A stretch of 64,000 nt of DNA from an uncultured Gammaproteobacteria bacterium (GCA_964445355.1 CAYUKQ010000004.1:1028-65027), one strand, 5' to 3'; numbered from the stretch's first letter, positions 42,832-61,350 are shown. Translations and numbers: made by a program. Notes: generated by a model from the letters alone, not told the origin.

Positions 42832-43962
42832 ATGACACAAACAAAGATAGGTTTTTCAGTTAAACAGGAAAATTTCGTTCAAGCTCTACAATTAGTTCTG
42901 AGGGTTGTTACTTCAAAAATAACCTTACCGATACTTAATAATTTTTTGATCGAAGTTGAGTCAGGGAAAATTATTGTGTCATCAACGAATCTTGATGTAG
43001 CAATATCAGTTACAGTTACTGCAACAAATACCCAAATTGGGAAAATTGCCGTACCAGGGAAGATATTAAATGATCTTGTTTCAACACTTAACCCAGGTGA
43101 TCTTGAACTCGAGGTGGTTGACGGAATCGGATCTTTAGTTTCGGGAAAATTTGCCGCAAAAATTAATACCGCCCCCGTTGATGATTATCCAGTGATCCCT
43201 TCAGAATCAGGTGAAGCTAGGGTGGAAATTCCATCAAAATTATTATCTTCGACGATAAACCGGGTTGAGTTTGCGGCTGCGCTTGATGAATCCAGACCGA
43301 TTTTGGCAGGGGTATTGTTTGATTTGTCGGAAAAAGGGATTGAATTGGTAGCGACGGACGGATACAGATTATCTCACGCAAAATTCGAAGGTGATTTTGA
43401 AAGCAGTCCGATTAGAGTTGTTATTCCAGCAAGAACGCTTCAGGAGGTATCAAAGATCTCTGTGTTGGGTGATATGGTTGGTGTTTGGTTGTCGGAGAAT
43501 GATAAACAGGTGGTTTTTAAGGTTGGTAATGTAAAAGTTGTTTCTAGGATAATCGAGGGTGAATATCCGAACTGGAGAAAGATCGTTCCTGAGTCATTTA
43601 CTACAAAGATGTTGGTTGATAGAGATGATTTTGCAAAAGCACTTACTCAAGCTGCGGTTTTTGCTAAGGAATCGGGTAATGTTGTGAAAATAAGTCTTGG
43701 TGAAGGATTAGGTATGGTGGTCTCTTCTGTTTCGAGAGAGTTGGGAGAAGAGAAAAACGAGATCGAGGGAGAGATGACTGGTCCGGCAGGTGAAATAGCA
43801 TTTAATTGGCGGTATTTGAATGATTTTTTGAGTGTTTGTTCATCGGAAAAGTTTAATCTGGAGATGTTGGAAAGTTTGAAGCCTGGAAAATTTACTTTTG
43901 ATAAAGACGAATCTGGTATTGAATTTATGCATATCATTATGCCTGTTAGACTACAGGAGTAA
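42832..43962 (+). CDS. dnaN: DNA polymerase III beta sliding clamp
   Basis: 376 aa with a conserved N-terminus (FSVKQENFVQALQLV) and three-domain length. Confidence 0.9.
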   Translation: MTQTKIGFSVKQENFVQALQLVLRVVTSKITLPILNNFLIEVESGKIIVSSTNLDVAISVTVTATNTQIGKIAVPGKILNDLVSTLNPGDLELEVVDGIGSLVSGKFAAKINTAPVDDYPVIPSESGEARVEIPSKLLSSTINRVEFAAALDESRPILAGVLFDLSEKGIELVATDGYRLSHAKFEGDFESSPIRVVIPARTLQEVSKISVLGDMVGVWLSENDKQVVFKVGNVKVVSRIIEGEYPNWRKIVPESFTTKMLVDRDDFAKALTQAAVFAKESGNVVKISLGEGLGMVVSSVSRELGEEKNEIEGEMTGPAGEIAFNWRYLNDFLSVCSSEKFNLEMLESLKPGKFTFDKDESGIEFMHIIMPVRLQE

Positions 43963-43973
43963 AAATAGATTTT

Positions 43974-44294
43974 TTGGGTCGTATGGCGGGTTTTGAAAAA
44001 GTAGATAGTCTGATTAAGCAGTTTCGTTTTAATAGCACCGAAAAACGGGCATTGGGGGCCTTACAGGTGGTTTCTAAATCTCAACCGGTGGTTGATAAAT
44101 GGGTAAAAAATAAATACGGAGAAAAAATCGTGGTTAGAGTGTCGCAGTTTAATGACGGAAAATTAGTGTTACTGGTAGGTAATGTTGTGGAGTTGGTTGA
44201 AATAAGAAAAAATGCTGAAGGGTTAAGAAGAAGGTTGAATCGAGTTTTATCAAGTAATTTGATCAAATCGATCACGGTGCGAGTGGAAAGATAA
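43974..44294 (+). CDS. DUF721-family protein (DciA-like, dnaN-associated)
   Basis: 106 aa in the typical position after dnaN, with a DUF721-like pattern (GKLVLLVGNVVELVEIR...LRRRLN). Confidence 0.5.
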   Translation: MGRMAGFEKVDSLIKQFRFNSTEKRALGALQVVSKSQPVVDKWVKNKYGEKIVVRVSQFNDGKLVLLVGNVVELVEIRKNAEGLRRRLNRVLSSNLIKSITVRVER

Positions 44295-44297
44295 AGT

Positions 44298-45314
44298 TTA
44301 GTTTGTTGCTTCTACGTTCAGAGTGATAAGGTATTCCTGATTATCTTTAGAGATTGCTGTGCCTGAGAATGTAAAGAAAGGGTAAATAGTTTGAGGGTTT
44401 TTGGTGGTTGGAAAAAAGTAGCTTGTTTGGACAGAAGTGATATTGATGTTTTTGTAGTTACTTGTGTAATAAGCTTCCTCCTCGTCTTTTGTTCCAGATA
44501 ATTTACGGATCTGTGTAATTGTGGATTGGTTTTTAGCTAGTTTGCTTACGGCTTGTTCCAGAGAAATTAACTGGACAGTGGTAGTGGGATTGTAGGTGAA
44601 TACAACAAGCGAAAAGCTGGTAATTGATCCTGATTTGTCGAAAGTAATTGAACCAACCGATGTGTTTGGGGTACGGTCTGTGGCCAAAAAAACCGTTTCG
44701 TGTTTGGTGGTAATGTCAAAACTGATCGTGTCAGCCAGATCAAAACTATCGACTGTTTGATCATTAAGATTGGTCGAGCGATAAAATTGCGGCGCAGAAA
44801 GTTGTAAGTTGGAATTATTACCCACTTTATTTAAGGTGTTTTGAGCTTGATCGGTAATTAGTTCTAGGGTAGAGATTTGCTGGTTGGTTTGGGGGTTGCG
44901 GTAAGTAATAGTAAGATCGTCGATCGTTAATGTTCTGTTTTGGTTAATGTAAACTTTTCGAGTGCCAAGGTCTGTTTGGAGTTCGCGAAAATCTGCTGGG
45001 TCGAAGTTGAACATATTTGCAATATTGTCGGAAGCGATTGGGGTTTTGGTAATCGATAATATTCCTAATGATTTCGGTGGAGTGTAACTGTAGACATCTG
45101 GGTCGATTTGGTATTTTTGTGGTTTATTTGCAAAGGGATCATTAACTGGTTTCGATGATTCAGGAATTGAACTGGTTTTGGTTGGTTCGGGCTTAGTTGG
45201 TTGAGTGTTTGGGTTGAATATTAAATAAAGAAAAATAAAGATTATTAGAAAGACACCAAAAAAGATAAATATCCAAAAATTCTTTAGTTTAGCCCTAAGT
45301 TGTGTAAGCGTCAT
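44298..45314 (-). CDS. membrane-anchored extracytoplasmic protein (hypothetical; last gene of the T4SS-like block)
   Basis: N-terminal TM followed by a T/N/Q-rich, beta-rich domain. Confidence 0.4.
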   Translation of the reverse strand: MTLTQLRAKLKNFWIFIFFGVFLIIFIFLYLIFNPNTQPTKPEPTKTSSIPESSKPVNDPFANKPQKYQIDPDVYSYTPPKSLGILSITKTPIASDNIANMFNFDPADFRELQTDLGTRKVYINQNRTLTIDDLTITYRNPQTNQQISTLELITDQAQNTLNKVGNNSNLQLSAPQFYRSTNLNDQTVDSFDLADTISFDITTKHETVFLATDRTPNTSVGSITFDKSGSITSFSLVVFTYNPTTTVQLISLEQAVSKLAKNQSTITQIRKLSGTKDEEEAYYTSNYKNINITSVQTSYFFPTTKNPQTIYPFFTFSGTAISKDNQEYLITLNVEATN

Positions 45315-45320
45315 ATATTT

Positions 45321-48300
45321 TTAGTTTACTGCAGCGCAACTGCCTGAACACCCCCGGACATCGACAGGAATGTATGGCGGCTCCATTCGGAGGCCTCGAA
45401 ATTCATAGTGAAGATGTGTGCCTCTAACATCAGGAGGAAGTATATATCCCGTGAATCCCTCATAACCAACTATTTGACCTTTAGTTATTACGGCTCCGAC
45501 TTCGATGCCTGGGCCAAACGAATCCATATGACCATAGATTGCTCTGAAGGATGTGCCGTTGCAGGTACCGCTTAGGATGACTGTTAAGCCGGTTCGGCCG
45601 GTGATCGGATGGTTACCAGCCGGATCTGTGTATTTATACTCAACAACTCCATTAAACGTGGCCAGTAAGCTATCGGTGTAGAAAGTAGCAACATCTATGG
45701 CTTCGAGAGATGAGTGTGAAACCAACCCTCCCGGTCCTTGTGTGACATTGCCTGATCCAGCCGCGGGCCAGCCCGACGGACAGTCTCCGGCGGGTGTGCC
45801 AATAAAGACTGATGAAAGGTCGTTTGCAGAGGAAGAAACCGAGTTGGTAAATCCTCCTCCAGGTGCCGGGATGGGGATTATGTTGGGGTCAAATGATTTA
45901 AAACTGATTGAAAATTTATTACTAATACTTGAGTCCTGAAAAATTGTCTCGTTCGGAATTGGAAGATCGTATGAAATACTGGCTGTTTGATTTGGATTGA
46001 GAGTGGTTGGACAGTTGATGGTTGGGCTGGTTAGGTTGCGAATATTTCCGGATTTAGTTACGTGGGTGATTGTATCAGTGCAGACAATATCGTAGATGGG
46101 TTGGTTTTGGGCACTAATATTGACAGTGTAGGTGACGGTTTGGGGAAGATCCGAATTTTCTAGTTTGATGGTTTTAGCGGGTCCGAGAGATTTAGCGTTA
46201 ACGCTGGCAAGCTTTTGAATTTGTATGTAAGTGTTTGATGTTTCACCTTCTGTAGCGTCACCAGGTAAAACGATTTGTTCCGGAAGGCTTGGGTTGGTAA
46301 ATAAAGCAGAAGAGACTGTGCTGTAGCTTAATATGGAAAATGTGGTAATACTCCCAACTGTGGCGGTCGGGATCAGGACAGCAGGGTTGGTTGCTACACC
46401 TACAAGTGCGTTAGTGCCACTGCTAACAAGTCCACCAATTGCTGATGCACCAGGAATTCCGCTAATAAAACCACCGACGGCCCCCGCAGCAGACCAGGTA
46501 AACGATGCAGCTGCTGCACCCGCCGACCAAATCGCTGAGGCTGCACCAGTGGCCCACCCTGAAACTGCCCCCCAAATCTTGGGAAGGTAAAACATAAGAT
46601 TATTAACAACTGTGGCGTAACCGGGGAAGTGGTTATAAAGCCAGACAGATGCTGTTCCACCAAGGAAACCGCCGATTAATGCACCTACTGGCCCACCGAG
46701 CGCGAACCCGATCGCTGCACCAACAGCGAATCCAACCGCAAAAGCGACGATGTTGGCAAGTATCCAAAGAAGGAACATGTAAGCGAGGAAAGCGAGGGTT
46801 GCGAGAATATAGGCGATCTGTTTTTTGTATTTTGCTGCCAGCATTAACCCGGCCTGCACAAGCAGCGAAATACCTCCGGTGCCAGCGCCGACGGCTGCAG
46901 AAATACCCAGTTTTGCTCCAACTTTTAGTGCGCCTTTTTTAGCAAATCCTTTGAGTTTGCCTTTGGCCCGACCGGCTGAAAATTTTTGTGAGAAGGAGAA
47001 AAATGATTTTTTTGGTATAAAATTGGCCGATCGAGTGATGGTTTGTCCGGCGGGGCTTTGAGAATAGTATGAACGGGAAAAATTACCCATTCTCCATACA
47101 GAATGTTTTTTGGGGGCATTAAACTCTGGAATCTGTTCATATAATTCCAGTTCGTCAGAGTAGTTTTTTAGGAGAATGGATTGACCAACGCTTATAGATT
47201 CCTGCTCATTTATTTCCCGAATCGATCTGGACAAAAAGGATCTTCTCTCTGGATTAGGGTTAAGACTTGCGGACAAAAACTCTTCATAACTTTGCTGTTG
47301 TCTTTTAGGATTATCCATGAGCGAGGCAAATGCGTGATTTTCGGCGGCGGTGATTTCTGAAGATTCAGCCTGATATTGTCCTTGAGAGTAAATATTGACA
47401 GGCTGAAGAATTTCGTGACTGACGACATCGGTAACGAAGCGGGGGGCTGCTAAGGTAAGAAGTGTTTTGTCGTCAAGTTTTGAGTCGAGGTGTTTGAGGT
47501 AATTCTGGTAGCTGTTTTCTTCTGCGGAGCGAAGATTCTGAAGGAGACTTTGTGGGTTAAGAGGGATGTTCTTATCAAAATCTTCCTGTGTGTTTTGAAT
47601 GATTTGATTGGCAATGTTGGGTAGGTATATTTGGTGAATTGCTTCAGAGATAATTTGTTTGTTTTTTGCTGTAGCTGTTTCCGGGTTGATTTTTAATCCA
47701 GTGTCGATTGCTTTGTCGATGATTTGTGAGTGTGTTGATGGAGATGATTGGGGATCGGCTAGTGTGGAGATTAGGAGAATTTGTGATGCGGTATTGGCTT
47801 GGGTTACCGCTGGATGATTGGTTTCAGATACTTGGTCGACTGCGACTAAAAAGTCATCAGACTTGGTCAATTTTTTGGCGCCGTCTGTGGTCTCGGGTTC
47901 TTTGAGCGAATGTTCGTAGATTTCCGACGCCAAAACGGGCGACAATTCCTGGTAGTCGGCTGTGTGAGTGGAATAAATGATCTGGGTCGCGACATTGTTG
48001 GCGATTTTTCCAGCGATACGTTGTTGGTTGGCTGCGTCGATTTTGGCCTTGAACAGCGTGGCTGAGATGGCTGGTGATTGGATAAGTTGAGTGATGGCGT
48101 TGGTGAGTTCGGTGTGTGTGAGTGTGACTGTATCCTCGAGTTTTTTAGTTGTGGATCTGGTCGAACTTGATGAAGGTTTTGGATTAGCTGGCTCACCAGA
48201 TTGTTTTGAGGGTGATTTGGAGCTATTGTTGGGCAGGGTAATAATTCGAGTGGTCGTTTGGGGTAAGGTAATGGGTTGCTGGATCGGTAGGGGGGCGGTT

Positions 48301-48836
48301 GGGTTTACTGATTGAGGTGTTTGGGTCGTGGGGATTGGATTAGTAATCTTAATTGTTTTTGGTAGTTCGATAGGGGTGGGAGGGGTTTGGTTATTTTGTC
48401 GAATTTGTTTAATAGCGTTGTCGACTTCTTCAATAACCCCAGCGCTGCTAAGTGTGCGTGTTTGGGTTGGAGAATCCGGGTTTTGGAGTTTGTGAATAAT
48501 AGGAATGACAGATTGGTTGGTTAGTTCAAACTCTTTTAGATTGGCTTGAATTAGGGTGGTAAAGATTTGTTTAAGGACAAGGATGTTTTGGCCGATGTTT
48601 ATAATTTCGTATTTGTCGGCAATATTCTGGATAGTGATTAGCGTTTGTTCATAGCTTGCGTCTGGGAATAAATCTTTGAATTGTTCGTTAAACTCTTTCT
48701 CGCTTGGGAAGCGGGGTGGTTGACCGTCTTTGGGTGATTTTTCAAAAAAATCTAAAACCCAATCAGCTAAACGAAATTGGAGTAATTGGTCAATGGCGGT
48801 TTTGGGTTTGGATGGTTCAACCTGACTTGTTGACAT
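45321..48836 (-). CDS. giant polytopic membrane protein with a C-terminal M23/LytM peptidase domain (PrgK-like T4SS-associated cell-wall hydrolase candidate)
   Basis: 1171 aa with a P/T/Q-rich N-terminus and a central Gly/Ala-rich multi-TM region. The C-terminus has HxxxD...HLHYE (GYEGFTGY...GTHLHYEF). Confidence 0.6.
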   Translation of the reverse strand: MSTSQVEPSKPKTAIDQLLQFRLADWVLDFFEKSPKDGQPPRFPSEKEFNEQFKDLFPDASYEQTLITIQNIADKYEIINIGQNILVLKQIFTTLIQANLKEFELTNQSVIPIIHKLQNPDSPTQTRTLSSAGVIEEVDNAIKQIRQNNQTPPTPIELPKTIKITNPIPTTQTPQSVNPTAPLPIQQPITLPQTTTRIITLPNNSSKSPSKQSGEPANPKPSSSSTRSTTKKLEDTVTLTHTELTNAITQLIQSPAISATLFKAKIDAANQQRIAGKIANNVATQIIYSTHTADYQELSPVLASEIYEHSLKEPETTDGAKKLTKSDDFLVAVDQVSETNHPAVTQANTASQILLISTLADPQSSPSTHSQIIDKAIDTGLKINPETATAKNKQIISEAIHQIYLPNIANQIIQNTQEDFDKNIPLNPQSLLQNLRSAEENSYQNYLKHLDSKLDDKTLLTLAAPRFVTDVVSHEILQPVNIYSQGQYQAESSEITAAENHAFASLMDNPKRQQQSYEEFLSASLNPNPERRSFLSRSIREINEQESISVGQSILLKNYSDELELYEQIPEFNAPKKHSVWRMGNFSRSYYSQSPAGQTITRSANFIPKKSFFSFSQKFSAGRAKGKLKGFAKKGALKVGAKLGISAAVGAGTGGISLLVQAGLMLAAKYKKQIAYILATLAFLAYMFLLWILANIVAFAVGFAVGAAIGFALGGPVGALIGGFLGGTASVWLYNHFPGYATVVNNLMFYLPKIWGAVSGWATGAASAIWSAGAAAASFTWSAAGAVGGFISGIPGASAIGGLVSSGTNALVGVATNPAVLIPTATVGSITTFSILSYSTVSSALFTNPSLPEQIVLPGDATEGETSNTYIQIQKLASVNAKSLGPAKTIKLENSDLPQTVTYTVNISAQNQPIYDIVCTDTITHVTKSGNIRNLTSPTINCPTTLNPNQTASISYDLPIPNETIFQDSSISNKFSISFKSFDPNIIPIPAPGGGFTNSVSSSANDLSSVFIGTPAGDCPSGWPAAGSGNVTQGPGGLVSHSSLEAIDVATFYTDSLLATFNGVVEYKYTDPAGNHPITGRTGLTVILSGTCNGTSFRAIYGHMDSFGPGIEVGAVITKGQIVGYEGFTGYILPPDVRGTHLHYEFRGLRMEPPYIPVDVRGCSGSCAAVN

Positions 48837-48896: not shown

Positions 48897-50759
48897 TTAC
48901 TGAATTATTTCCTGTGTGGCAGAAATTGGTTGCGAGTTGGTCTGATCTGTATCGGTTTGTGTAGTGCCGTCTATTTGGTTGGCAAGAATATCCTTAGGAT
49001 TGGACGTGACAAGCTTGTCTTCGTTTGGTGAGGCAATAACGCGCATTGCCACGTGTGAGCTACCGGCGAAAAACAATCCTTCACCAACGTCGGCACCGAG
49101 CAATAGGTGTTTTTCCCCATCAGTTAGGTAAAAGACTTCTGCAAGCTTGTCGATTGCCGCCGCAGACTGTTTGAGTAGTATTTGAATACTTGAGTTGGTA
49201 ACAATCGCCTTTCCGTATTCAGTACTGAGGAAGTCTTCGACATCCTGAGTAATGGTTGTTAATCCAAGGTAGTATTTGCGTGCACGCTTGGCGATCGAAT
49301 ACATAAAACTCGCGGAATCCGGATATTGCATCATGTACCAAGCCTCGTCGACGATGAGAATGCGTCGTTTTAGGTCTCTTTTTACTCTGGTCCAGATAAA
49401 ATCAAGAATAATGTACATGGCGATTGGGCGAAGTTCGGCTTCGAGGTTTTTGATCCCAAATACAGTAAAAGTATTACGTAGGTCCATATTAGAATATTGG
49501 TCAAAAATTCCAACCAAAGATCCTTTGACAAATTTTTCAATTCTTTCTGCAAGTGTTTTGGCTTGTGGTTCTTCCATGCCGATTAATACTTTGTATAAGT
49601 CTTCCATTAGCGGAGGTTGAAGTGTTTGTGTTTGAGGACTGTCAGCAACGATACCTTTGTTTTTGTAGGTTTGGACAAGTGCCCGATCCAGGATTGCGTC
49701 TTCGGTGGCGGATAGCTGTCCCATAATGACGCGGAATAAGCCGTGCAGTGAGAGGATTTTGAGTCCTAGTTCGTTTTCTTCTTCGTACGTTCCTGAGAGG
49801 TCGAAGGGGTTGATCTTGGTGTCGGACTTGAAATCGAAACTGATATATTCTCCGCCGATGGCGTTGCAGAGATTTTTGTACTCTTCTTCAGGGTCAATAA
49901 TGATGATTTCTGTGCCGAACATTAAATATCTTAAAGCTTCGAGTTTGGTCATGTAGGATTTTCCACCTCCGGATTTGGCAAAAACGACGGTGTTAGCGTT
50001 TTCTAGACTGAAACGATCAAAGATGATGAGTGAACCGTTGTGTTCATTAAGTCCATACATGATCCCCTCGTTGCTGGTTAAAGAGCTTGAAGTGAAAGGA
50101 AAGGTTGTTGCCAGTGAGGTGGTATCCATGTTGCGAGTAACAAGTAGTTTGTCGTGACCGTAAGGCAGGGTTGTTTTGAAGCCATCTTCCTGTTGTAGTG
50201 TGGCGTGTTTGGAGATAACTAAAATAGAACCTAACAGACTCTCAACCTGTTTAGTAATATTTACCAATTCCTCTTTGGTTTCTGCAGGGATGGTGATGTA
50301 GAGTCCAAATTGGAAGAATTTTTCTGCACCTTTGGCGATATTCTGCTGGAAGGTTCGAGCGTCATCAAGTGTAACCTCAAGGTTTGGGTCAATGATCTTG
50401 CCGCGCTGGACGTCCGTGGAGATCGTGGCTTCCATTTCGCCGATTTTGCGCTTCATGTCCTGAAGAACGGCTTGTGCGTCAACCGGATAGTGAAACATTG
50501 ATATTTCGAGTGTGTGGTTGAAATTGATTAATGGAGAGAGCCAGTTGGCGCCGACATAGCGCGGATAGCCAATTATAAAGAGTGTTTTGAAGTATGTTTC
50601 ACCAATTTTGATGAAGTCAAAGTCGACTTCAATGGCTGGTGGTGCAATGATATCGCGAACAGAAACCGTACCTTGCGCGACAGCTTTGGCTTGTGCTGAG
50701 ACTAATTCGGGAGCATTTTGAGGTGATTGGTTGGGATTTTTTTTGCCGAATAGTTTCAT
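48897..50759 (-). CDS. VirB4/TrsE/PrgJ-family type IV secretion ATPase
   Basis: KIGETYFKTLFIIGYPRYV...WLSPLINFNHTLEISMF is VirB4 N-region-like. Walker A (FAKSGGGKSY) and Walker B (ILIVDEAW) are present. Confidence 0.8.
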   Translation of the reverse strand: MKLFGKKNPNQSPQNAPELVSAQAKAVAQGTVSVRDIIAPPAIEVDFDFIKIGETYFKTLFIIGYPRYVGANWLSPLINFNHTLEISMFHYPVDAQAVLQDMKRKIGEMEATISTDVQRGKIIDPNLEVTLDDARTFQQNIAKGAEKFFQFGLYITIPAETKEELVNITKQVESLLGSILVISKHATLQQEDGFKTTLPYGHDKLLVTRNMDTTSLATTFPFTSSSLTSNEGIMYGLNEHNGSLIIFDRFSLENANTVVFAKSGGGKSYMTKLEALRYLMFGTEIIIIDPEEEYKNLCNAIGGEYISFDFKSDTKINPFDLSGTYEEENELGLKILSLHGLFRVIMGQLSATEDAILDRALVQTYKNKGIVADSPQTQTLQPPLMEDLYKVLIGMEEPQAKTLAERIEKFVKGSLVGIFDQYSNMDLRNTFTVFGIKNLEAELRPIAMYIILDFIWTRVKRDLKRRILIVDEAWYMMQYPDSASFMYSIAKRARKYYLGLTTITQDVEDFLSTEYGKAIVTNSSIQILLKQSAAAIDKLAEVFYLTDGEKHLLLGADVGEGLFFAGSSHVAMRVIASPNEDKLVTSNPKDILANQIDGTTQTDTDQTNSQPISATQEIIQ

Positions 50760-50766
50760 AGTTTGT

Positions 50767-51765
50767 TTAGCTTGTCGGAGATTTTAAGGCGTCTAAGGCT
50801 TTTAGAATATCAGGATCGATTGTTTCATTAGAGCTGGATGTGGGTGGTGTCTGACTAATAGCTGTGTTGCTGGTCGGTACTTGTTGGGGTGCCAAGTTGA
50901 AGGTTGATTGGTTGGCTATTGGTGAGTAGATTGTTTGGGTCGGTTCGGTTGGAGCCTGGTTGATTTGGGTAGTTTGAGGTTGTACTGGGGGGATATTTTG
51001 TATTGCCGGTTGTGGCTGATCAACAATTGGTTGTGCTGGGATGGTTGGGTTTTGGGTAATGGCAGCAGGTTGTGTAGGAAGTTCTTCGATCGGAGCTGAG
51101 ACTGCAGGCGTGACGATTGGTGTGGTGTAAGAGCCGGCCGCCTCGGTAATTTTTTGCAGACCGACCTCGCTAGGATTATAAATGTCGAAATACAATTCGA
51201 TAAGCTCTTGGGTGGTAAGCTGAAGTGTTTTGATGCCGAGTCTGCCAAATTGTTGGAATAAATGATCGCGTTTGGGATAGAGGTTGGTTTTGACGGTTTC
51301 GATATAAGTTTGCATATGGTTGCTGTCACGCTGGATGTTGCCGAGTGCGGCTCCTTTTACTCCGAGTTCAAGCGGATTAAATGGGATAATGACATAAAAT
51401 TTTTTTTCCAAAACGTTGTTTTGTTTAACAATTCCCTGGATGAACTGTAAGTATTCGTAAATTTGGCGTTTAATGTCTGGGTTGGCCTGGTGCGCTTCGG
51501 CTTGAGTAATAAGTTGGATGTAGGCGCTAAGATCGATTTTTTTGCTACGAATAACAATTTGTGTGGTGAAGTTTAGCGAGTTAAGCAGTCCCGCGTAAGA
51601 ATAAATAATCGAGTCCTGCTCATCGACCGAGAGTAGTTGAAAGTTGACGGCTGCGGTTTGGATGACGATGGCTGCTGAATTGTCCTTCAGAATTACAACA
51701 TCATCGCGAATATCAACAATCTCTAGATGTTCCTGGGTTGATGATTTAATCGGGGCAGATTTCAT
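50767..51765 (-). CDS. VirB4 N-terminal-domain-like protein with a P/Q/T-rich tail (possible split VirB4 partner)
   Basis: HLEIVDIRDDVVILKDNSAAIVIQTAAVNFQLLSVDEQ resembles the extreme N-terminus of Gram-positive VirB4/TraE proteins. Only 7 nt separate it from the ATPase gene. Confidence 0.45.
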   Translation of the reverse strand: MKSAPIKSSTQEHLEIVDIRDDVVILKDNSAAIVIQTAAVNFQLLSVDEQDSIIYSYAGLLNSLNFTTQIVIRSKKIDLSAYIQLITQAEAHQANPDIKRQIYEYLQFIQGIVKQNNVLEKKFYVIIPFNPLELGVKGAALGNIQRDSNHMQTYIETVKTNLYPKRDHLFQQFGRLGIKTLQLTTQELIELYFDIYNPSEVGLQKITEAAGSYTTPIVTPAVSAPIEELPTQPAAITQNPTIPAQPIVDQPQPAIQNIPPVQPQTTQINQAPTEPTQTIYSPIANQSTFNLAPQQVPTSNTAISQTPPTSSSNETIDPDILKALDALKSPTS

Positions 51766-51767
51766 GA

Positions 51768-53768
51768 TTAGGATGGTAAGTTTTTAGCTTTTATGGCAAA
51801 CGGATCGAGAAGTTTACCATGTGTTTCGAAGGCAATTGTATCAAAGTTTAGGCCTTCGAAATCGGTCTGAATTGTGTAGGTACCGTTGGGGAGCGGGGTG
51901 ACAGAGATAAATTGACCCAGGCCGTTGGTCTTGAATGCCCGAACAGGTTTGCCGGTGTGATCATAAACAGAAATCAGTGCGCCTTCGACCAGTCCGCCGT
52001 GATTGTCGTAGACAACACCATTGGGGGTGTTGGGGTGTTCGGAAAGATTGATTTTGACTTCGGCTTTGGGTGCTTGCTGGGCTTGGTTTTTTTGGTAGTT
52101 AAAAGGCTGAACGATACTGGCGTGCTTAGGGGCGGGATTGGAATCGGTTTGTACAGGAGCGGTTTGGGGTTGATCTTTGGGTTTTTCGACTAAATTTGGA
52201 CTTGGGGGGGCGATGAAATCCTTTGATGATTTTTGTTCAACCCGACCGGCTTTTAAGGGTTCAAAATCTTTAACTTTTTTGATTTGTTCAATAGCTATTC
52301 CCCCAGCGACCTTGATCGGTTGAATTGAAGGTGCAGTTTGGGGTTCGGTTTGCTCGAAGCGTTTTTTTAGTTCGCTGCTTACGTCGAATTGTCTCTCTCC
52401 TAGGATCGGTAGACGCGGTTTGGAGAAGTCGGGTGGACGATTTTTTAGTTTGCGAATCCTGGTATCGCCAATTCCTTGAAGGAATTGGAGCTCTCGACCA
52501 GGAATCATAATGACATTGTCACCAAAGTTAATATCGGAGGCGATTTGAGCTGAGATCGAAATTTGGCTATTAAGAGCAGAAAAATTGCTGGAGGGGTGCG
52601 GAGAAACGGTTGTTTTTTTGCCGAGGTTGGGGAGTAGGTGTTTTTGAAAAAGATCGGGAGTTGAGGTGTTGATACTTGATTCGGAGAGGTCTTTGTTTTT
52701 TTTGAATTCTTCCCAAGCTTGGGAAAATTTCTGCTGTTCTTGCTCGATACTGGCTTGTTGTTTAAGTATTTCAGCTTCTTTGGTTTTGATTTCTTCCTCA
52801 ATTTTTTTCTGAGCTTGTAGAACTTGGTCTAGTTCAGCAAGTTTTTGTTTGGAATCTTCGATCGTTTTGGCCCCATGCTGATTCGGGGCAGTGTTAGCGT
52901 GTTGGCTGTAGGGTAAGATTTTGGTATCAATATTAGGATTTTGCTGTGGTGACACACTGACGGTTGTGTTTTCGGGTCTTTTACTGATTATGATTTGAGG
53001 AGGAGTGGTCGGGTTTTTGTCAGATAATTGCTTGCTGAGCAGATCTAATTTTTTCTGTTTTTCTTCTTCGAGTTTTATCTTGGTTGTTTCAAGCTCTTTT
53101 TGTTTTTGGATCAAGGCTAATTCTTGCGCCTTAATCTCTTCAGCTTTGGCTTGAAGCTGAGACGATTTTGGTGCAGCTTGAATCGTGGCGTGTTTCTCCT
53201 TGATAGGGGCTTGGTAGGGGGAATAGGGGTTGAGTTGGTTGGCAAGTTGGTTTTGGGGCGGGATAGAAGACAATGGTGCGATAGTGGAGGCAAGATTACT
53301 GATTTCGGTTAGGTATTGGTTCTCTTGTTGGTCGAGAGAGTTGGTCGATTGAGTATGCGATTGTTTCGATAACAGTGTTTGTAAATCAGCGCGACTGAGT
53401 CGATTACCGGATAGTGTTTGTATGGCCGGATTAACAGGCGCGGGTTTTAGGAAATTAGCTTCAAGAAAGTAAGGAACGTGATTATCCTTGATCCAAATTC
53501 TCTGTGTAGGTCTGCTGATTGATCGGATAAAAGCTACGATCCATTTGTCTAGCGGTCTGCCCTGCAGTGGTACGGCGGCAAAAGTTATTCCGCCGATTAC
53601 AAAGATAGCGGCTATTGGGTAAGCGACGGTTTTTGGAAGAGGTGAAAAGTAGAAAATTGCAGCAATAATTCCTCCAAAAGCAACATAAATGAATTGGCGA
53701 ATGGTAAATGGCCCAAAAAGTTTGAACTCAAAAGTGGTTATATTTTGCGGTACGGCATGCTCTTCCAT
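51768..53768 (-). CDS. PrgI/VirB3-like two-TM N-terminus fused to a coiled-coil/low-complexity region and a C-terminal beta-sandwich domain
   Basis: TEFKLFGPFTIRQFIYVAFGGIIAAIFYF is PrgI-family-like. The middle is a Q/K/E-rich coiled coil and the C-terminus is prealbumin-like (GTYTIQTDFEG). Confidence 0.55.
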   Translation of the reverse strand: MEEHAVPQNITTFEFKLFGPFTIRQFIYVAFGGIIAAIFYFSPLPKTVAYPIAAIFVIGGITFAAVPLQGRPLDKWIVAFIRSISRPTQRIWIKDNHVPYFLEANFLKPAPVNPAIQTLSGNRLSRADLQTLLSKQSHTQSTNSLDQQENQYLTEISNLASTIAPLSSIPPQNQLANQLNPYSPYQAPIKEKHATIQAAPKSSQLQAKAEEIKAQELALIQKQKELETTKIKLEEEKQKKLDLLSKQLSDKNPTTPPQIIISKRPENTTVSVSPQQNPNIDTKILPYSQHANTAPNQHGAKTIEDSKQKLAELDQVLQAQKKIEEEIKTKEAEILKQQASIEQEQQKFSQAWEEFKKNKDLSESSINTSTPDLFQKHLLPNLGKKTTVSPHPSSNFSALNSQISISAQIASDINFGDNVIMIPGRELQFLQGIGDTRIRKLKNRPPDFSKPRLPILGERQFDVSSELKKRFEQTEPQTAPSIQPIKVAGGIAIEQIKKVKDFEPLKAGRVEQKSSKDFIAPPSPNLVEKPKDQPQTAPVQTDSNPAPKHASIVQPFNYQKNQAQQAPKAEVKINLSEHPNTPNGVVYDNHGGLVEGALISVYDHTGKPVRAFKTNGLGQFISVTPLPNGTYTIQTDFEGLNFDTIAFETHGKLLDPFAIKAKNLPS

Positions 53769-54028: not shown

Positions 54029-56311
54029 ATGCCAGACACAGAGCGACATACAATTAGTCTAGAAGACCAGGCGAGGGTTGAAAATCAACCCTTGGCGAGT
54101 ACGCAAGCCGAGGCTCAATTGTTTGAAATTATCGATAGAACCATGGGGGTTGAGCCGCAGAATTCGGCGCAAACTGAGTACATAGAACAGGTTGGTTATA
54201 TACGAGAATTGAACGCGCTTGAGTCAGAACTGGCTGGTGTACCTCAAGAACAAGTGGAATTGCGAAGGCAACTTGAGGCCAGGAGAAATGAATTGCGGAC
54301 AAATCTTGAGGTAATGGTTAGGACGGAAAAGGACAAGGAAAGATATGTTGATGTGAGTTTGAGGCTGTTTACGAGGCTTCAAACACAAAAAGAAACAGCT
54401 TTGCTTACTGTTAAAACATTTACCGGATTGAGACCTAATGCTAATGAAATTATGGGGCCGATCAATGGTTTTCGAGACAGGATTGAGTCCTTAAGAAAAG
54501 AAGGTGATCCAGGTTCTCAAGAACGAAAAGATGCGGAACTAAAAGCTGCAGCTTTGGAGTATGAGTTCAGTAAAGTCAGAGCGGAGGTTGAAGAGGCAAT
54601 TAAGAATTATAATCCCGTAAGGTCGTTGAGGTTGAATGCTTTGACGGAATTAGAATTAGCGGAAGATCAGCGTGTGGCTAGGGACAATCCGCAGATCAGA
54701 GAATTGTTAAAAATTCTTAACGATCCTGAGCTGAGCCAGAGATTTGGTAAAGAAGTGGAAGATTTTAGAGATGAATATAACGCTTTGGTGCGAATTCACA
54801 ATTTTGCGGTTGCGGGGAGAGGTAAGGGGGCGGTTGAAATTACTACTGCTTTGGGTGAGTTAGATCAGGCTGCGCTGGTAGAGCTATTTGGGGCAGATGA
54901 ATTGAGACAGGATATTATTGGTGCGTATATTGTTGATCGGAATGTTTTTTCAAGATTAGACGGTTTGATTTTGAATCAAGATGAGGCAGAAGCTGTTCTT
55001 GAGGAGACTACAGTGTTAGGGAACAACAAGCGAACTTTTGTGCGGACTAGTGTGCCTGATCCGAATAATCCCGACAGAGAGATTGATTTGGAGACACTGT
55101 ATCGAACCACAAGCTCGGAAGCTGAAAAGAAAGCATTAATAGATAGATACGCAGATAAACTAACAGGTGGATATAAGACAAAAAAGGCCTGGGAAAAGAA
55201 GTATGTTGATGATGTGTTGAGTGCGGAATTTTTTACAGAGGAACAGAAGAGTGATTTTAGAAGGCGTGAGGGTATCGATGAGAGTGTGGCTGATGCTGGA
55301 TTAATTGCAATGATTGAGGCTAGTTATGAGTACAAGTCCAGAAAAATAATTTTAGGACAGCATTTGGATAATATGGTTGGTTTTTTAGAAACGACCGTCG
55401 CTCCAATGGCTATTAAGCCGATTAAAGTTAAAACGCTCGAACCCTTGAAGAATGGGGGTACAGAGGCTTATATATTCGCCGGCAAGTATAAGGATAATCC
55501 TTTGGTTAAAGCCAGATATCCGCAGGATGTGCTTGAGTCGGGCGGTAAGGTGAATTCGAGAATTATCGATATAACAAACCCAATATTTGATAAAGGGTTT
55601 TATAAATACACCGATCCAGGATTTAAGTTGATGACGGAGATTTTTAAAATGGAAGAACCAACTGTTGACCAGGGGCAGGATAAGGTTGTGGCTTGGCTGG
55701 ACGGTTTTAAGTCTGCCGATGTGTTGAGTAGGATTCGAGAGAATCCTGAAATAGTGAATAAATTAAAAGACGATGTTTATAAAGATGCGGTTACGGTGCA
55801 ATCGTCGGAGATGTATGACAAGTTCGAAGCTTTTCAGAGAGAACCCAGTGAAGAGTCGGCAAAGGCGCTGATGGCGAGTTATTTTTCTAAAACCCCTGAG
55901 GATCGGCGCAGTTTTAATATGGATGTAATTGAGGCACTACTGAAGTACAAAATGAAGATTAATGGTATTTATGCCTTTAAGGATTTCAATGAGCGAGGAA
56001 ATTGGGGAGCAAGAAGGGCCGAAGATTATATTAAGAAAGCCAGGGAAGCGGGGCTAATCGGGTTAAGGGAAGAAAATGAGTTGATGCGACGAATTTTTAC
56101 GGGAGCTTCACTGCCAATTGGTTTTGGTAGGAGAATTCAGATTACTCCAGGAGGGCGGTTCGGTAAGGAAGTTTTTAGTAAACCTTTGGAGTTTGCTGGG
56201 GCATATACGAAGGAAGTTTTTGGGATTAAAAATATTATGAGTACAGGAAAGAGTTGGCTCAAGACTTTGTTTAATGAAAGTGTGTCCCAGATCAAGTCTG
56301 ATTTGAAATAA
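54029..56311 (+). CDS. large soluble charged protein of unknown function, on the opposite strand inside the T4SS-like block
   Basis: 760 aa with no TM or signal peptide. No family recognised. Confidence 0.4.
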   Translation: MPDTERHTISLEDQARVENQPLASTQAEAQLFEIIDRTMGVEPQNSAQTEYIEQVGYIRELNALESELAGVPQEQVELRRQLEARRNELRTNLEVMVRTEKDKERYVDVSLRLFTRLQTQKETALLTVKTFTGLRPNANEIMGPINGFRDRIESLRKEGDPGSQERKDAELKAAALEYEFSKVRAEVEEAIKNYNPVRSLRLNALTELELAEDQRVARDNPQIRELLKILNDPELSQRFGKEVEDFRDEYNALVRIHNFAVAGRGKGAVEITTALGELDQAALVELFGADELRQDIIGAYIVDRNVFSRLDGLILNQDEAEAVLEETTVLGNNKRTFVRTSVPDPNNPDREIDLETLYRTTSSEAEKKALIDRYADKLTGGYKTKKAWEKKYVDDVLSAEFFTEEQKSDFRRREGIDESVADAGLIAMIEASYEYKSRKIILGQHLDNMVGFLETTVAPMAIKPIKVKTLEPLKNGGTEAYIFAGKYKDNPLVKARYPQDVLESGGKVNSRIIDITNPIFDKGFYKYTDPGFKLMTEIFKMEEPTVDQGQDKVVAWLDGFKSADVLSRIRENPEIVNKLKDDVYKDAVTVQSSEMYDKFEAFQREPSEESAKALMASYFSKTPEDRRSFNMDVIEALLKYKMKINGIYAFKDFNERGNWGARRAEDYIKKAREAGLIGLREENELMRRIFTGASLPIGFGRRIQITPGGRFGKEVFSKPLEFAGAYTKEVFGIKNIMSTGKSWLKTLFNESVSQIKSDLK

Positions 56312-56335: not shown

Positions 56336-58045
56336 TTATCTTCGATTTTCGTATGGGTTAGCGGTACGGTTGTTTTGCTGGGCGGCTCTTTGTGGGGTCG
56401 TGGTTGGTCCGGCTGGCCCCGGCCTACCTGGAGTGATCGGACTTGAAGCTCCTTCCTGACGGGACAGTCGGTCATATCTGCGCTGAGCACTCCATGGGTT
56501 GAAGGTATTGTTGAGTTTTTCCTGTCCAAAATCATTTACTCTGGTTTTGGCGCGACTAGCAGCACCATTGAAAGGTTGTCTGGCCATTCCCCATCCTGCG
56601 CCAGCGACGGCGCCAGCAGCACCGCCAATTGTTCCGCCAAGTCCACCGCCTTTGACTTTGAAGGCGTCTTGAGCGATCTTGGCTGCTGAAGGGATACCTA
56701 AGAGGATGCCAATACCAATAAGCGACTTAAGTGCGTTAGCGCCGTCTTCGTCAGTGAAGCCGCCCAGAAGTGGGGCATTCCAACCGTCGCCTTCAGTAAT
56801 TGTGGCTTCACCGGAGGTAATGCGGTCTTTGCCAACACCCATAAAATATGCAGCAAAAATAATCATCAGAATTGTAATAACAAAGGTAGCAAGTTGAGCG
56901 GCGATGTTGCGGATCCATGGACCAAAACCCGGCATGTTTGGCAGTACGCCGATACCGATCATGAGTGGACCAAAGATGGTGTAGAAAAAGACTTTTACGT
57001 AAGCGATCAGAAGCATGAAGAAGATACGGAAGGTTGCAACCAGCATCATAATGCCGATGACGGCGACGGCGAGCGCAGAAAGAATTTTGGAACTGAATTT
57101 TTCGATCAAGTCTGGCAAGCCGAATTGATCGATCGCTCCGCTGATAATGTCATCATTACTATTAAATATCCCGGAAATGTTTTTCAAAAAGAGATCTTTG
57201 AGCATAAAAGTAAAGACATTTCCTTCGTAATAAATATGATTAGAGTCGGCTTTGGCTACATTTTCGCTAGAGAGGATTTGGATCATGATGGCGATAAAAA
57301 AATTCATAAGATCGATCATTAGACCGACGATGGCATAGCTGAAGGTAATTAGAATTAAGCTAATAATGATTTTCGGAAGGACGGCTTGGATCGAAGCAAC
57401 GGAATTTGAGTTAAGGCGTTGTCTAAAAATGATCATGAAACCAATAATGATGAAAAAGATGACGTATAGAAGTAGGGTAAGGTTGCGAAAAGTGGTCCAA
57501 AGCGCTTGAGTTGGTTTCAGTCCGTCGTAGCCGCTTTGGGCGGCTAAAGTTTCTCCGGTGATTTTGGATTTGATATCCGCAATATATTGAACCCCAGAGG
57601 CTGGTTCTTCGGTATAAAGCAGAGAAATACTTTTCATTAAAAACGGTATTGCGGCGGCAGGTTGACAGTCGGTGGCGCCTGAGTTGATACATTCAAGTTC
57701 TTCATCGGTAGCCGGCAAGCCAGTGATTTGGCGGTTAATGCCGTAAGCGAGGTTATCCATTAGTCCGAGATTGAATTTTTGAAGGTTTACATCCTCTTCA
57801 TCAAGGGCATTTTTGTACTGACAGATAGATTGTTGGTAGGGCTGGACGGTTTTACCTACGCCCTGTTGGGGGTTTGAGATCGCGGAGCTGTCTGGACCGG
57901 CTGGAGCTGCGGATCCGGAGTCGGTTTCACATTCAAAAGGATCTTCTACTTGGGCTTGGGCGTTTTTGAGGCTGAAAAAGACGGTAAAAAGGGTGAATAT
58001 TGCAATGGTGGACAGGACAAGCTTAAGTCGCATTAGTTTAGGCAA
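56336..58045 (-). CDS. VirB6/TrbL-like polytopic type IV secretion channel protein
   Basis: Signal peptide, about 6 TM helices and a C-terminal Gly/Pro-rich tail, next to VirB4-like genes. Confidence 0.55.
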   Translation of the reverse strand: MPKLMRLKLVLSTIAIFTLFTVFFSLKNAQAQVEDPFECETDSGSAAPAGPDSSAISNPQQGVGKTVQPYQQSICQYKNALDEEDVNLQKFNLGLMDNLAYGINRQITGLPATDEELECINSGATDCQPAAAIPFLMKSISLLYTEEPASGVQYIADIKSKITGETLAAQSGYDGLKPTQALWTTFRNLTLLLYVIFFIIIGFMIIFRQRLNSNSVASIQAVLPKIIISLILITFSYAIVGLMIDLMNFFIAIMIQILSSENVAKADSNHIYYEGNVFTFMLKDLFLKNISGIFNSNDDIISGAIDQFGLPDLIEKFSSKILSALAVAVIGIMMLVATFRIFFMLLIAYVKVFFYTIFGPLMIGIGVLPNMPGFGPWIRNIAAQLATFVITILMIIFAAYFMGVGKDRITSGEATITEGDGWNAPLLGGFTDEDGANALKSLIGIGILLGIPSAAKIAQDAFKVKGGGLGGTIGGAAGAVAGAGWGMARQPFNGAASRAKTRVNDFGQEKLNNTFNPWSAQRRYDRLSRQEGASSPITPGRPGPAGPTTTPQRAAQQNNRTANPYENRR

Positions 58046-58088: not shown

Positions 58089-59273
58089 CTATTCCTTGCG
58101 AACCTCAATATCTCGTGGGGTGATTGTGCGCAGAATAATTTCTTTGGCTGTTTGAACACCACCTAGATATCCGGCCCAAACCTGATTGCTGGAGCCAAAA
58201 CCTTTAAGTCTGGTTGAGGCAGTGTCGGAAAATTCGCCTGAATTATGCTGGTTCCAGAAGTCCCCAGGACCAAATAATCTTAGACCGCCTGATTTTTTGC
58301 GAACAAGCGACTTCCATACAACATCAACGTAAGGAATTCGTGAGGAAATAAGTGAGCCGTTTTTGGTGAACTGTACAGATTCAGCAGCAGAGCCGGAGGC
58401 AGTGTAGAGGATAATATATTCCTCTCCCGGACCTTCACGACCTTCAGGTTTGGCAGGATCGGGGTTGAAATCTTTGGATTCTTTGACCAGGTCGTTAGGT
58501 GTAGTGACTTGCTGTAGTATCTGTGAAAGTGCAGCAAGTCTCGCAACTGAAGGTACGCCAATCAATAGATCCCTGCCTGGCTGACAAGACTCCGATTTGT
58601 CTTGATTGTCCGAGGTTGAAGAGATACAACCACGAGATGTCCAGTTGGTGACCAGAGGAAATTTTGCCCAGTACCTTCCCCATGTTTGATTCCAGGTTTC
58701 GTTTGATACTCCACCCTCAAGTCCCGGAGGTTGGGGTTTGCCCCAGGCGTCATAAAGATCTTTGATCGTTCGATAGTGTTGTCCGCAGTAGTCACCGTAT
58801 TCAGCAGCAGCTTCTTCGAGTTTGGTTGTGCCGTTTTTGGAAAGCTGATAAATAGTTTCAACGTATTTTTGTCTTAATAGATCGATGTTATTTTTGGGAA
58901 GGACTTTGATGAGTGGGCCGTTAAAATTGTTAAGCTCGTTGTTGGTGAGTTTTGAGAGGTCGGTTTTGCGATGTGAGTCGGTTTGAAACTTGCCTTCTAG
59001 ATAATTAGCCATTGAGCGCGCAAAAGGCAGAACAGGCTTATTGACTACAGCAGATACCCCCGAGGCGTTGACGACTGCACGTGGAGGCTGGTAGTCGTTT
59101 TCTGATTTGTTTTCGAGCTCATTCCAGCTAGGTATTTGATAAGTTGGGTTAGTACTATCCGGTGGCGCAGGTTGAGTACAAATTTTTGGTGGTGCCGCAA
59201 AAGTGTTTTTTGGAAGGAAAAAGAGTGTACTAGTTAAGCTTAGACAAAGACTTAGGCAGAAAAGTTTTTTCAT
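58089..59273 (-). CDS. secreted Cys-containing protein (hypothetical T4SS-associated)
   Basis: Signal peptide (LTSTLFFLPKNTFA) and several Cys residues. No family recognised. Confidence 0.4.
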   Translation of the reverse strand: MKKLFCLSLCLSLTSTLFFLPKNTFAAPPKICTQPAPPDSTNPTYQIPSWNELENKSENDYQPPRAVVNASGVSAVVNKPVLPFARSMANYLEGKFQTDSHRKTDLSKLTNNELNNFNGPLIKVLPKNNIDLLRQKYVETIYQLSKNGTTKLEEAAAEYGDYCGQHYRTIKDLYDAWGKPQPPGLEGGVSNETWNQTWGRYWAKFPLVTNWTSRGCISSTSDNQDKSESCQPGRDLLIGVPSVARLAALSQILQQVTTPNDLVKESKDFNPDPAKPEGREGPGEEYIILYTASGSAAESVQFTKNGSLISSRIPYVDVVWKSLVRKKSGGLRLFGPGDFWNQHNSGEFSDTASTRLKGFGSSNQVWAGYLGGVQTAKEIILRTITPRDIEVRKE

Positions 59274-59292: not shown

Positions 59293-59706
59293 TTAGATGT
59301 TGCATAGGGTACCTGCCGGAGTGTAGTTGAGCAGGTTGATGCCTGTTACTAATTCAAGCGATTTGAAGATGGCATATACAAGCAAGAGGACCACGACTCC
59401 GATGAGTGCGGTTGTGATTGCGCCGCGAGCTTGGCCGGCGCCACCTGGATTACCGAAGGAGAAAATATATTTGTACCCAGCGTAAATGAGCATCAGGAAA
59501 AAAGCGATCCCTGCGGCCGGGGCAATGATCTTGATCGTTTTGGCGACGATCCCGAGCAAATCACAAAGCTGCGATGGGGTTTCGCTATCGCTACCGCCTC
59601 CTCCGGGTGGACCGCCACCTCCGGTACTGGCGGCGAAGGCTGTTTGACTAACTAAAAGCAGTAAGAGGACATAAACAATTGTGATTGAGAGCGCTCGATA
59701 TTTCAT
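59293..59706 (-). CDS. pilin-like small membrane protein, paralog 1 (signal peptide plus two-TM hairpin)
   Basis: Signal peptide, a Gly-rich segment and two TM helices separated by the loop FSFGNPGGAGQARGAI. Confidence 0.5.
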   Translation of the reverse strand: MKYRALSITIVYVLLLLLVSQTAFAASTGGGGPPGGGGSDSETPSQLCDLLGIVAKTIKIIAPAAGIAFFLMLIYAGYKYIFSFGNPGGAGQARGAITTALIGVVVLLLVYAIFKSLELVTGINLLNYTPAGTLCNI

Positions 59707-59821
59707 AAAAACTAACTCTTATTAAGAATGATACCAATAACTAATGACTTAAATCCAAAACAATACCGGTCGGGAACGAAATCCGTCCAGACCGATATGT
59801 TTTTTGGGAGTAAAACAATTA

Positions 59822-60202: not shown

Positions 60203-60226
60203 AACGACTCACCCCCTTTCAAGGTT

Positions 60227-60676: not shown

Positions 60677-60677
60677 T

Positions 60678-61344: not shown

Positions 61345-61350
61345 AGACAG

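Follow-up and report, generated by a model that had tools for sequence, protein, structure and literature searches.

A polytopic M23 peptidase as the probable cell-wall hydrolase subunit of an origin-proximal type IV secretion system in a Curtissbacteria-like Patescibacterium

The wall hydrolases TraG, TcpG, CwlT and VirB1 of type IV secretion systems (T4SSs) are needed for transfer (PMC12102498, PMC11323569), and those of Gram-positive systems are anchored in the membrane (PMC11323569). PrgK from Enterococcus faecalis pCF10 has an intracellular N-terminal part, a single transmembrane (TM) helix as its membrane anchor, and extracellular LytM/M23-fold, muramidase and CHAP heads; its activity lies in the muramidase, its LytM domain is degenerate, lacking the HxxxD and HxH motifs and the metal, and it binds PrgL, the product of the next gene (PMC11323569). 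Patescibacterial T4SSs are MPF-FATA-like, adjoin dnaA, contain arrays of VirB2-like pilins and, in most clusters, are reported to be without a relaxase; in most Patescibacterial classes, virB4 and VirB1 homologues show little linkage, and VirB6 homologues are reported to be scarce in Microgenomatia (PMC12102498). In Candidatus Southlakia epibionticum ML1 (Saccharimonadia), epibiotic growth requires the T4SS cluster beside dnaA; there, the 1113-amino-acid (aa) protein SEML1_0007 is encoded directly after VirB4, is essential by transposon sequencing and has a C-terminal zinc-peptidase-type fold of the Hedgehog/DD-peptidase (M15-like) group (PMC10633639). It has been proposed as a substitute for VirB1 (PMC12102498). 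Here we describe a gene that directly follows VirB4 in another such cluster, within a 64,000-nucleotide stretch of DNA (GCA_964445355.1 CAYUKQ010000004.1:1028-65027, hereafter the window) that is labelled as coming from an uncultured Gammaproteobacteria bacterium.

The gene, at 45321-48836 on the minus strand, encodes a 1171-aa protein in which a long N-terminal region, a membrane block and an Ig-like spacer precede a C-terminal M23 peptidase head. We consider it probable, from homology and gene order, that this protein is a dedicated cell-wall hydrolase subunit of the T4SS, in the position held elsewhere by PrgK or VirB1. It starts 60 bp downstream of a VirB4 gene on the same strand and belongs to one minus-strand run with a TraC/TrsD-like open reading frame (ORF), a PrgI protein and five pilin-like ORFs, which strongly supports the likeness to PrgK/VirB1-type wall-opening enzymes suggested by an initial annotation of the window. 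The parts of the gene are as follows.

45321-48836, minus strand: whole ORF of 1171 aa, with an ATG start and its stop codon at 45321-45323
48507-48836, minus strand: conserved helical N-terminal domain, predicted to be cytoplasmic, aa 1-110 (invariant columns and AlphaFold helices)
48141-48506, minus strand: variable disordered linker rich in P, T, S and Q, aa 111-232 (composition, indels and low AlphaFold confidence)
47112-48140, minus strand: conserved all-alpha domain, aa 233-575 (conservation and AlphaFold)
46911-47111, minus strand: K/R-rich juxtamembrane segment, predicted cytoplasmic side, aa 576-642 (charge count)
46299-46910, minus strand: almost charge-free, Gly/Ala-rich, glycine-zipper-like membrane block, aa 643-846 (composition and GxxxG motifs)
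45801-46298, minus strand: acidic linker and Ig-like beta-sandwich spacer, predicted to be extracytoplasmic, aa 847-1012 (AlphaFold and Foldseek)
45324-45800, minus strand: M23 zinc metallopeptidase domain, aa 1013-1171 (Pfam, profile and fold)
45714-45716, 45693-45695, 45528-45530 and 45408-45416, minus strand: codons of the key residues H1041, D1048, H1103 and H1141 with H1143, respectively

The M23 assignment of the C-terminus, on which the initial annotation had staked its reading, agreed between Pfam, profile and fold searches. Pfam Peptidase_M23 (PF01551) matched aa 1045-1147 at E 6.1e-8 (33.2 bits against a gathering score of 28.7) and was matched by 51/51 relatives, the best at E 1.7e-25. 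A 96-member family profile searched against solved structures found ShyA at E 8.8e-25 and also Csd1/2, NMB0315, zoocin A, lysostaphin and LytM. Foldseek matched the last ~160 residues to Csd3, ShyA, EnpA, lysostaphin and LytM with probability 1.00, with target-normalised TM-scores of 0.6-0.7 to M23 catalytic domains (EnpA, lysostaphin, LytM and StM23). For these matches, aa 600-1171 were modelled with AlphaFold from the 96-member family alignment; the confidence score (predicted local distance difference test, pLDDT) was >90 over aa ~869-1171. The ~130 residues before the M23 domain form the spacer, for which Foldseek returned pilus chaperones, the CPE0147 adhesin repeat and RhoGDI-type sandwiches; DUF7507 was matched in 7/51 relatives.

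The active site had been called canonical, and this held for one of its two motifs. HLHYE is present at aa 1141-1145, but the first zinc motif reads H1041-x6-D1048 (HSSLEAID) rather than HxxxD. Across the family, the His-to-Asp distance was 7 in 80/151 sequences and otherwise 5-20, never the canonical 4; D1048 aligned with the motif Asp of solved M23 enzymes. D1048, H1103, H1141, H1143 and Y1144 were invariant in both the 96- and the 51-sequence alignments, where H1041 was at least 90% conserved, and the family shares further conserved features (CPxGWP, TQGP, GxCxG and C-terminal cysteines). The M23A enzyme LasA also has a long His-Asp spacing (His23/Asp36), so that long spacing need not abolish zinc binding. 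By these residues and matches the protein is a member of the M23 family, of an atypical subfamily, and its head is apparently an active enzyme. SLT, muramidase/lysozyme-like, CHAP and NlpC-P60 domains were not detected in it (Pfam at E<=0.1 gave M23 only, and NCBIfam nothing relevant, its sole match falling far below the model cut-off); because all of these are undetected, the protein would be a functional analogue of VirB1, working like PrgK, but a homologue of neither.

The association with the T4SS extended well beyond the window. In a context sample of 13 loci (the window, L002, L003, L006-L012 and L015-L017), a family member lay within the T4SS cluster in 13/13. It directly followed VirB4 in the window and in L002, L003, L006, L007, L008, L009, L011, L012 and L016, and in L010, L015 and L017 the gene was inverted yet still stood between the cluster and dnaN. 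The order of the genes around it is shared by L001-L003, L006, L007, L011 and L016. The surrounding genes in the window are these.

43974-44294, plus strand: DciA-like 106-aa ORF between the T4SS cluster and dnaN (weak match, E 0.099)
44298-45314, minus strand: single-pass membrane protein of 338 aa, separated by 6 nt from the stop codon of the peptidase gene; candidate partner of the M23 head, in the place of PrgL in pCF10
48897-50759, minus strand: VirB4-like ATPase (CD1110 family) of 620 aa (NF045971 at E 3.7e-120, above cut-off; P-loop_TraG; AAA_10)
50767-51765, minus strand: TraC-like/TrsD-like ORF of 332 aa, the detached N-terminal part of VirB4 (fused to it in L006)
51768-53768, minus strand: PrgI (VirB3-like) fusion protein of 666 aa (PF12666 at E 1.4e-10)
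54029-56311, plus strand: soluble 760-aa protein on the opposite strand within the cluster, without a family match
56336-58045, minus strand: polytopic 569-aa protein, candidate divergent VirB6-like subunit (about 6-8 hydrophobic segments)
58089-59273, minus strand: 394-aa protein, a conserved cluster gene without a family match
59293-61959, minus strand: array of five T4SS pilin-like ORFs (PF18895)
61978-63708, plus strand: protein of 576 aa that combines an N-terminal coiled coil with a SpoIID (lytic transglycosylase-type) domain, adjoining the pilin array

By content and order, this locus is a chromosomal, origin-proximal, Gram-positive-type (MPF-FATA-like) T4SS of Patescibacterial layout. 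On the downstream side of the peptidase gene lie dnaN, dnaA, yidC and the DciA-like ORF, orthologues of which in L010, L011 and L017 carry precomputed PF05258 matches. Within the pilin array, three ORFs scored above the PF18895 cut-off (E 8.7e-7, 1.4e-7 and 4.1e-7) and two below it (5.7e-5 and 0.004). Relaxase and coupling-protein families did not turn up among the window ORFs scanned with Pfam and NCBIfam. The pCF10 order prgI-prgJ(virB4)-prgK-prgL is paralleled here by PrgI, VirB4, the peptidase and the 338-aa protein.

Several features of the neighbouring genes can be recorded beside this layout. The TraC/TrsD-like and VirB4 parts, split into 332-aa and 620-aa ORFs in the window, are fused in a single 860-aa protein in L006 (L006:2083-4665). 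The PrgI domain accounts for the first ~90 aa only of the 666-aa protein, the C-terminus of which gave sub-threshold matches to CarboxypepD_reg and to T9SS-sorting-type beta-sandwiches. The 569-aa protein had no Pfam match; its gene and that of the 760-aa protein keep their positions in L002, L003 and L007. The five pilin-like ORFs are small, encode two or three helices, stand in tandem and resemble the essential pilin array of Saccharibacteria, and where the cluster ends the 576-aa SpoIID protein adds another gene for wall remodelling. No transfer RNA, transfer-messenger RNA, ribosomal RNA or Rfam family at its gathering threshold was found in the 64-kb window, over which the cumulative guanine-cytosine (GC) skew climbs steadily despite the presence of dnaA/dnaN at ~41-44 kb.

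The taxonomic label of the DNA did not fit these genes. A member of the orthologue clusters of the peptidase, MBP6979622.1, comes from Candidatus Curtissbacteria, and the VirB4 of the window was 70-76% identical to Curtissbacteria and Roizmanbacteria proteins. Judged by these named close relatives and by the Patescibacterial layout of the locus, the organism is a Microgenomatia (Curtissbacteria-like) Patescibacterium, and we rejected the Gammaproteobacteria label as a placeholder.

The ORF itself is intact. It runs from its ATG without internal stops, and in a search of 5.8 billion proteins clustered at 90% identity its orthologues fell into nine clusters with 57-100% identity and 99-100% query coverage, the alignment being collinear over the entire 1171-aa length. 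The same full-length gene is present in four independent genome assemblies. A frameshift or an assembly chimera joining two ORFs, the artefact that the initial annotation had warned of, is rejected on these grounds: full-length collinear orthologues at 57-100% identity in independent assemblies rule it out, the distant members in L006, L007, L011 and L016 share the same order of N-terminus, TM block, beta-domain and M23, and the likelihood that we assign to such an artefact is close to nil.

The N-terminal region is less uniform than the P/T/Q-rich stretch of about 550 aa first described. That description fitted aa ~111-232 only, where T (18%), P (14%) and S (11%) are abundant, orthologues show indels and poor conservation, and a pLDDT <50 over aa 103-231 predicts disorder. 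The segments on either side (aa 1-110 and aa 233-575) are instead conserved and predicted to be helical. The first contains many invariant columns (DQLLQFRLADW, IQNIAD.Y and IGQNI), was modelled as helices at a pLDDT of about 65-80 and shows weak similarity (E 4e-4) to the N-terminal end of L008_1207, a distant relative; for the second, Foldseek found no fold match in the Protein Data Bank (PDB; best E 0.69). The AlphaFold model of the N-terminal 640 aa reached a mean pLDDT of 56 from an alignment of 9 sequences only.

The Gly/Ala-rich membrane core, also proposed in the initial annotation, was borne out by a 204-aa block (aa 643-846) whose sole charged residues are K669, K671, K672 and K753, with no D or E. 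Gly and Ala make up 35% of it, and it contains 12 GxxxG motifs, where shuffles that preserve its composition gave 4.5 ± 1.8 (a fraction of 0.0002 of them reached 12). The GxxxG repeats claimed for it are therefore present; the claim of many TM helices is not secured, since neither Kyte-Doolittle analysis, which marked aa 672-727 as strongly hydrophobic and several other stretches as less so, nor AlphaFold, with moderate confidence for aa 659-759 and low confidence for aa 759-864, yields a reliable helix count. Among the 51 relatives, seven matched Gly-zipper_Omp (PF13488; 7/51) and five matched Gly-zipper_YMGG (PF13441; 5/51), while the block of the window protein had no Pfam match at E<=0.1, glycine-zipper models included. 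It had no sequence match in the PDB and no fold match in Foldseek at this limited AlphaFold confidence. Profiles for VirB6, TrbL and PrgH had no matches in the protein (Pfam and NCBIfam) or among the 51 relatives (Pfam). Weak profile matches to tape-measure proteins, huntingtin, FtsY and IF-2 fell in the low-complexity Gly/Ala/Lys region and were set aside as compositional.

Antisense ORFs at 46333-46942 coincide exactly with the Gly/Ala block, where the GC content is 0.52 against 0.39 for the window, and within the orthologous genes of L002 and L003 the other-frame or antisense ORFs of at least 100 aa lie at different positions. They are by-products of composition, in line with the earlier remark that they were probably artefacts.

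We infer that the N-terminus is cytoplasmic and the C-terminus outside, because no signal-peptide-like hydrophobic segment was found at the N-terminus by hydrophobicity analysis, because the region before the block is K/R-rich (16 K/R against 5 D/E over aa 560-642) and the stretch after it acidic, and because of features of the relatives. Three of these (P0019, P0036 and P0136) carry a canonical DnaJ J-domain with its HPD motif at aa ~110-190, N-terminal to the block, which argues for a cytoplasmic N-terminal side and hints at Hsp70 recruitment, and the conserved cysteines of the family lie in the C-terminal domains, the predicted ectodomain.

An exhaustive search of 1.84 billion representatives with the family profile yielded 842 matches with E<=1e-3, of which 245 reached E<=1e-10. 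Among the matches listed, those beyond the close orthologues aligned only from profile position ~600 on, that is, over the block, the beta-domain and M23. When 149 listed matches were re-scored locally, 38 aligned from the membrane block on, 77 from the beta-domain on and 34 over M23 only, some of the last being short secreted forms. The N-terminal regions of the relatives are lineage-specific and range from ~40 to ~700 aa, and the membrane block reaches ~300 aa in some members. A word-indexed search with a profile of the beta-domain only gave a single match.

Identity across diverged loci was 27-32% for the peptidase family, 37-42% for DnaN and 61-75% for VirB4. At shorter range, the protein of L002 was 67% identical to that of the window whereas DnaN was 84% identical. 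An exceptionally fast evolution of the peptidase, suggested by the latter comparison, is tempered by the former, in which its values are close to those of DnaN. VirB4 (48897-50759) is far more conserved than the clamp DnaN (42832-43962, plus strand).

The enzymatic head is exchangeable on a conserved scaffold, and different heads occur even in genomes that are close relatives. The 1207-aa protein of L008 (9924-13547) and the 1131-aa protein of L011 (9016-12411) share 36% identity across ~1030 residues (E 1e-164), but L011, like L016 and the window, ends in an M23 head and L008, like L012 (9131-12280), in an HExxH head (HEMGH and HESGH). The HExxH head of L008 gave a sub-threshold match to a YgjP-like metallopeptidase (E 0.01). 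On the scaffold of L009 (9963-11966) stands a third, Cys-rich head, for which the family search returned no matches; in this locus a separate 179-aa gene of the same M23 subfamily (12625-13164) follows two genes on.

Head type and next gene co-vary. All M23 genes (11/11) were followed on the same strand by a gene for a homologous single-pass protein of 331-357 aa (window 44298-45314, minus strand; L002:13447-14493; L011:12411-13466; L010:1343-2374), and both HExxH genes (2/2) by genes for homologous proteins of 189-198 aa that are 43% identical to each other (L008:13547-14143; L012:12282-12851). The M23 gene and its partner stay together even where the pair is inverted relative to VirB4. The family of the 338-aa protein had no matches in Pfam or among PDB sequences, and a VirB8-like identity for it, which we considered, found no support in either; the family of the 189-198-aa proteins matched no Pfam model above cut-off. 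By analogy with PrgL, the 338-aa protein is likely a targeting or regulatory partner.

Several observations weigh against the assignment as a dedicated wall hydrolase. The function of the protein is deduced from homology and synteny, and its likeness to SEML1_0007 from position and published description. Its first zinc motif is of the atypical H-x6-D form, and HxxxD defines active LytM/M23B enzymes. It lacks a muramidase/SLT domain, in which the activity of PrgK lies and by which VirB1 is defined, and the 338-aa protein has no detectable VirB8-like signature. A block of 200 aa and a predicted cytoplasmic region of 640 aa also exceed what an anchor needs, which makes a role beyond wall cutting probable.

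Rival readings can be weighed against the same evidence. One possibility is that the head is a catalytically inactive LytM-type regulator that controls another hydrolase, as do the LytM domain of PrgK, EnvC, NlpD and DipM. The non-canonical first motif, the precedent of a degenerate LytM domain in PrgK and Foldseek matches to the LytM domains of DipM and EnvC would fit this, but degenerate LytM domains lose their His and Asp residues, which are retained here at all five positions, the family profile matched active ShyA far better than EnvC (8.8e-25 against 1.6e-5), and Pfam detected no other hydrolase domain in the protein or its adjacent genes in the window. With its catalytic residues conserved, we regard an inactive regulator as distinctly unlikely. 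A housekeeping wall endopeptidase of growth or division that lies near the T4SS and the origin by chance is likewise unlikely, and strongly so, because the T4SS linkage is kept: the association with VirB4 and the cluster survives in every sampled locus, three of them rearranged, the gaps to the neighbouring genes (60 bp and 6 nt) are of operon type, and the positional equivalent lies in the essential T4SS block of S. epibionticum. The ubiquity of M23 enzymes and the NCBI name of a close orthologue, 'peptidoglycan DD-metalloendopeptidase family protein', speak for a housekeeping role all the same.

Two further proposals take in the rest of the architecture. The block might oligomerise into a channel, making the protein a VirB6-like or VirB6-replacing translocon subunit fused to a hydrolase; we hold this to be possible but doubtful. 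Its charge-free composition and significant GxxxG periodicity, the glycine-zipper matches in relatives, its conservation across the family at up to ~300 aa in some members and the scarcity of VirB6 homologues in Microgenomatia (PMC12102498) are in favour, and if true it would help to explain that scarcity. Against it stand the failure of TrbL, VirB6 and PrgH models and of PDB sequence and fold searches to match, the presence of the separate 569-aa polytopic protein as an equally good VirB6 candidate, and family members that are short, secreted and without the block. Alternatively, and compatibly with a wall hydrolase of the T4SS, the heads may attack host peptidoglycan at the contact site and be exchanged to match the host wall, a suggestion that we would make only tentatively. 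S. epibionticum cannot grow as an epibiont without its T4SS, heads as different as HExxH and M23 sit on one homologous scaffold (L008 and L011), an M15-like head is reported for SEML1_0007, and at short distance (L002) the protein diverges faster than DnaN. The tether, however, is only ~170 residues (linker and one Ig-like domain), so that the head, as long as it is not released, would be expected to reach only the wall of the cell that makes it; neither a cleavage site nor a secretion signal was identified, and the long-range divergence is similar to that of DnaN. Taken together, the two would make the protein a core channel-associated subunit in which the block contributes to or replaces a VirB6-type pore and an exchangeable, partner-paired head, matched to the host wall, breaches it at the contact site. 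We think this combination improbable; if true, the protein would be a modular host-entry device that helps to define the host range of obligate epibionts.

For the wall hydrolase that we favour, the following course can be proposed. The protein would be inserted with its N-terminus on the cytoplasmic side, where the 640-aa helical region would stay and could dock to the VirB4/TraC-like ATPase complex. The glycine-zipper-like block of ~200 aa would anchor it, probably by self-association or by packing with further membrane subunits of the T4SS, and the Ig-like sandwich would place the putative zinc M23 endopeptidase outside, a few nanometres from the membrane. There, the head may cut peptide cross-links of the peptidoglycan locally, and the resulting opening would let the T4SS channel and VirB2-like pilus assemble or pass. 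The 338-aa protein could serve as targeting or regulatory partner of the M23 head, by analogy with PrgL and PrgK.

M23 modules in the T4SS hydrolases of monoderm plasmids, and, in Patescibacteria, an essential gene for a peptidase homologue behind virB4, are already known, and the protein described here refines that theme; it represents no new class of system. In the literature searched, we found no description of the scaffold architecture, of the H-x(6-11)-D M23 subfamily, of head swapping or of the linkage between head and partner. A large part of bacterial diversity belongs to the Patescibacteria, and in their one tractable species life on a host depends on the T4SS beside the origin. The position behind VirB4 is taken by a widespread, fast-diverging family with a conserved membrane and Ig-like scaffold, in which catalytic residues, head swaps and a partner protein offer concrete handles on how a T4SS opens the wall, and head type could serve as a marker to correlate with host wall type.

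Among described proteins, the peptidase shares with PrgK (Enterococcus faecalis pCF10, DELTA-class) membership of a monoderm MPF-FATA T4SS and a LytM/M23 fold, and its predicted layout, with the N-terminal part inside the cell, a membrane anchor and the hydrolase outside, would also agree with that of PrgK. It differs, by comparison with the published description, in its 204-aa Gly-zipper-like block, its 640-aa N-terminal region, its Ig-like spacer and its single M23 head, the catalytic residues of which are complete where those of the PrgK LytM domain are degenerate. The far larger membrane domain that the initial annotation noted in comparison with PrgK-type enzymes holds against the single helix of PrgK (PMC11323569). 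With SEML1_0007 it has in common a similar size, a C-terminal zinc-peptidase-type fold and a gene that immediately follows VirB4 in a Patescibacterial T4SS near the origin, a likeness of position and description; its head is M23 and not M15-like, and the next gene encodes the 338-aa single-pass protein, whereas SEML1_0007 is followed by a protein with lysozyme and Cys-protease domains. As a wall hydrolase of a T4SS cluster it falls into one class with TraG (pIP501), TcpG (pCW3), CwlT (ICEBs1) and VirB1, which combine lytic transglycosylase or muramidase domains with CHAP or NlpC/P60, none of them detectable here. M23 modules also occur in large proteins near T4SS genes on Bacillus cereus pBFI_1 (WP_001995962.1) and Gordonia p1 (WP_298810409.1); these modules are 28-31% identical to that of the window protein, and the two proteins are annotated as NlpC/P60 or transglycosylase and carry additional heads. 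Phage tape-measure and ejection proteins are similarly long, with a C-terminal M23 domain by which a translocation device gets through the wall (BFVD and PDB matches), an analogy only: the M23 part alone aligns, over about 130-150 columns, and the TM block finds nothing. The M23B peptidases ShyA, Csd3, lysostaphin, LytM, EnpA and zoocin A share the fold, with the Asp, the mid-domain His and the HxH all aligning; the window protein departs from them in a His-to-Asp distance of 7 (in the family mostly 7, otherwise 5-20) in place of 4, and in the fusion of this head to a polytopic membrane scaffold.

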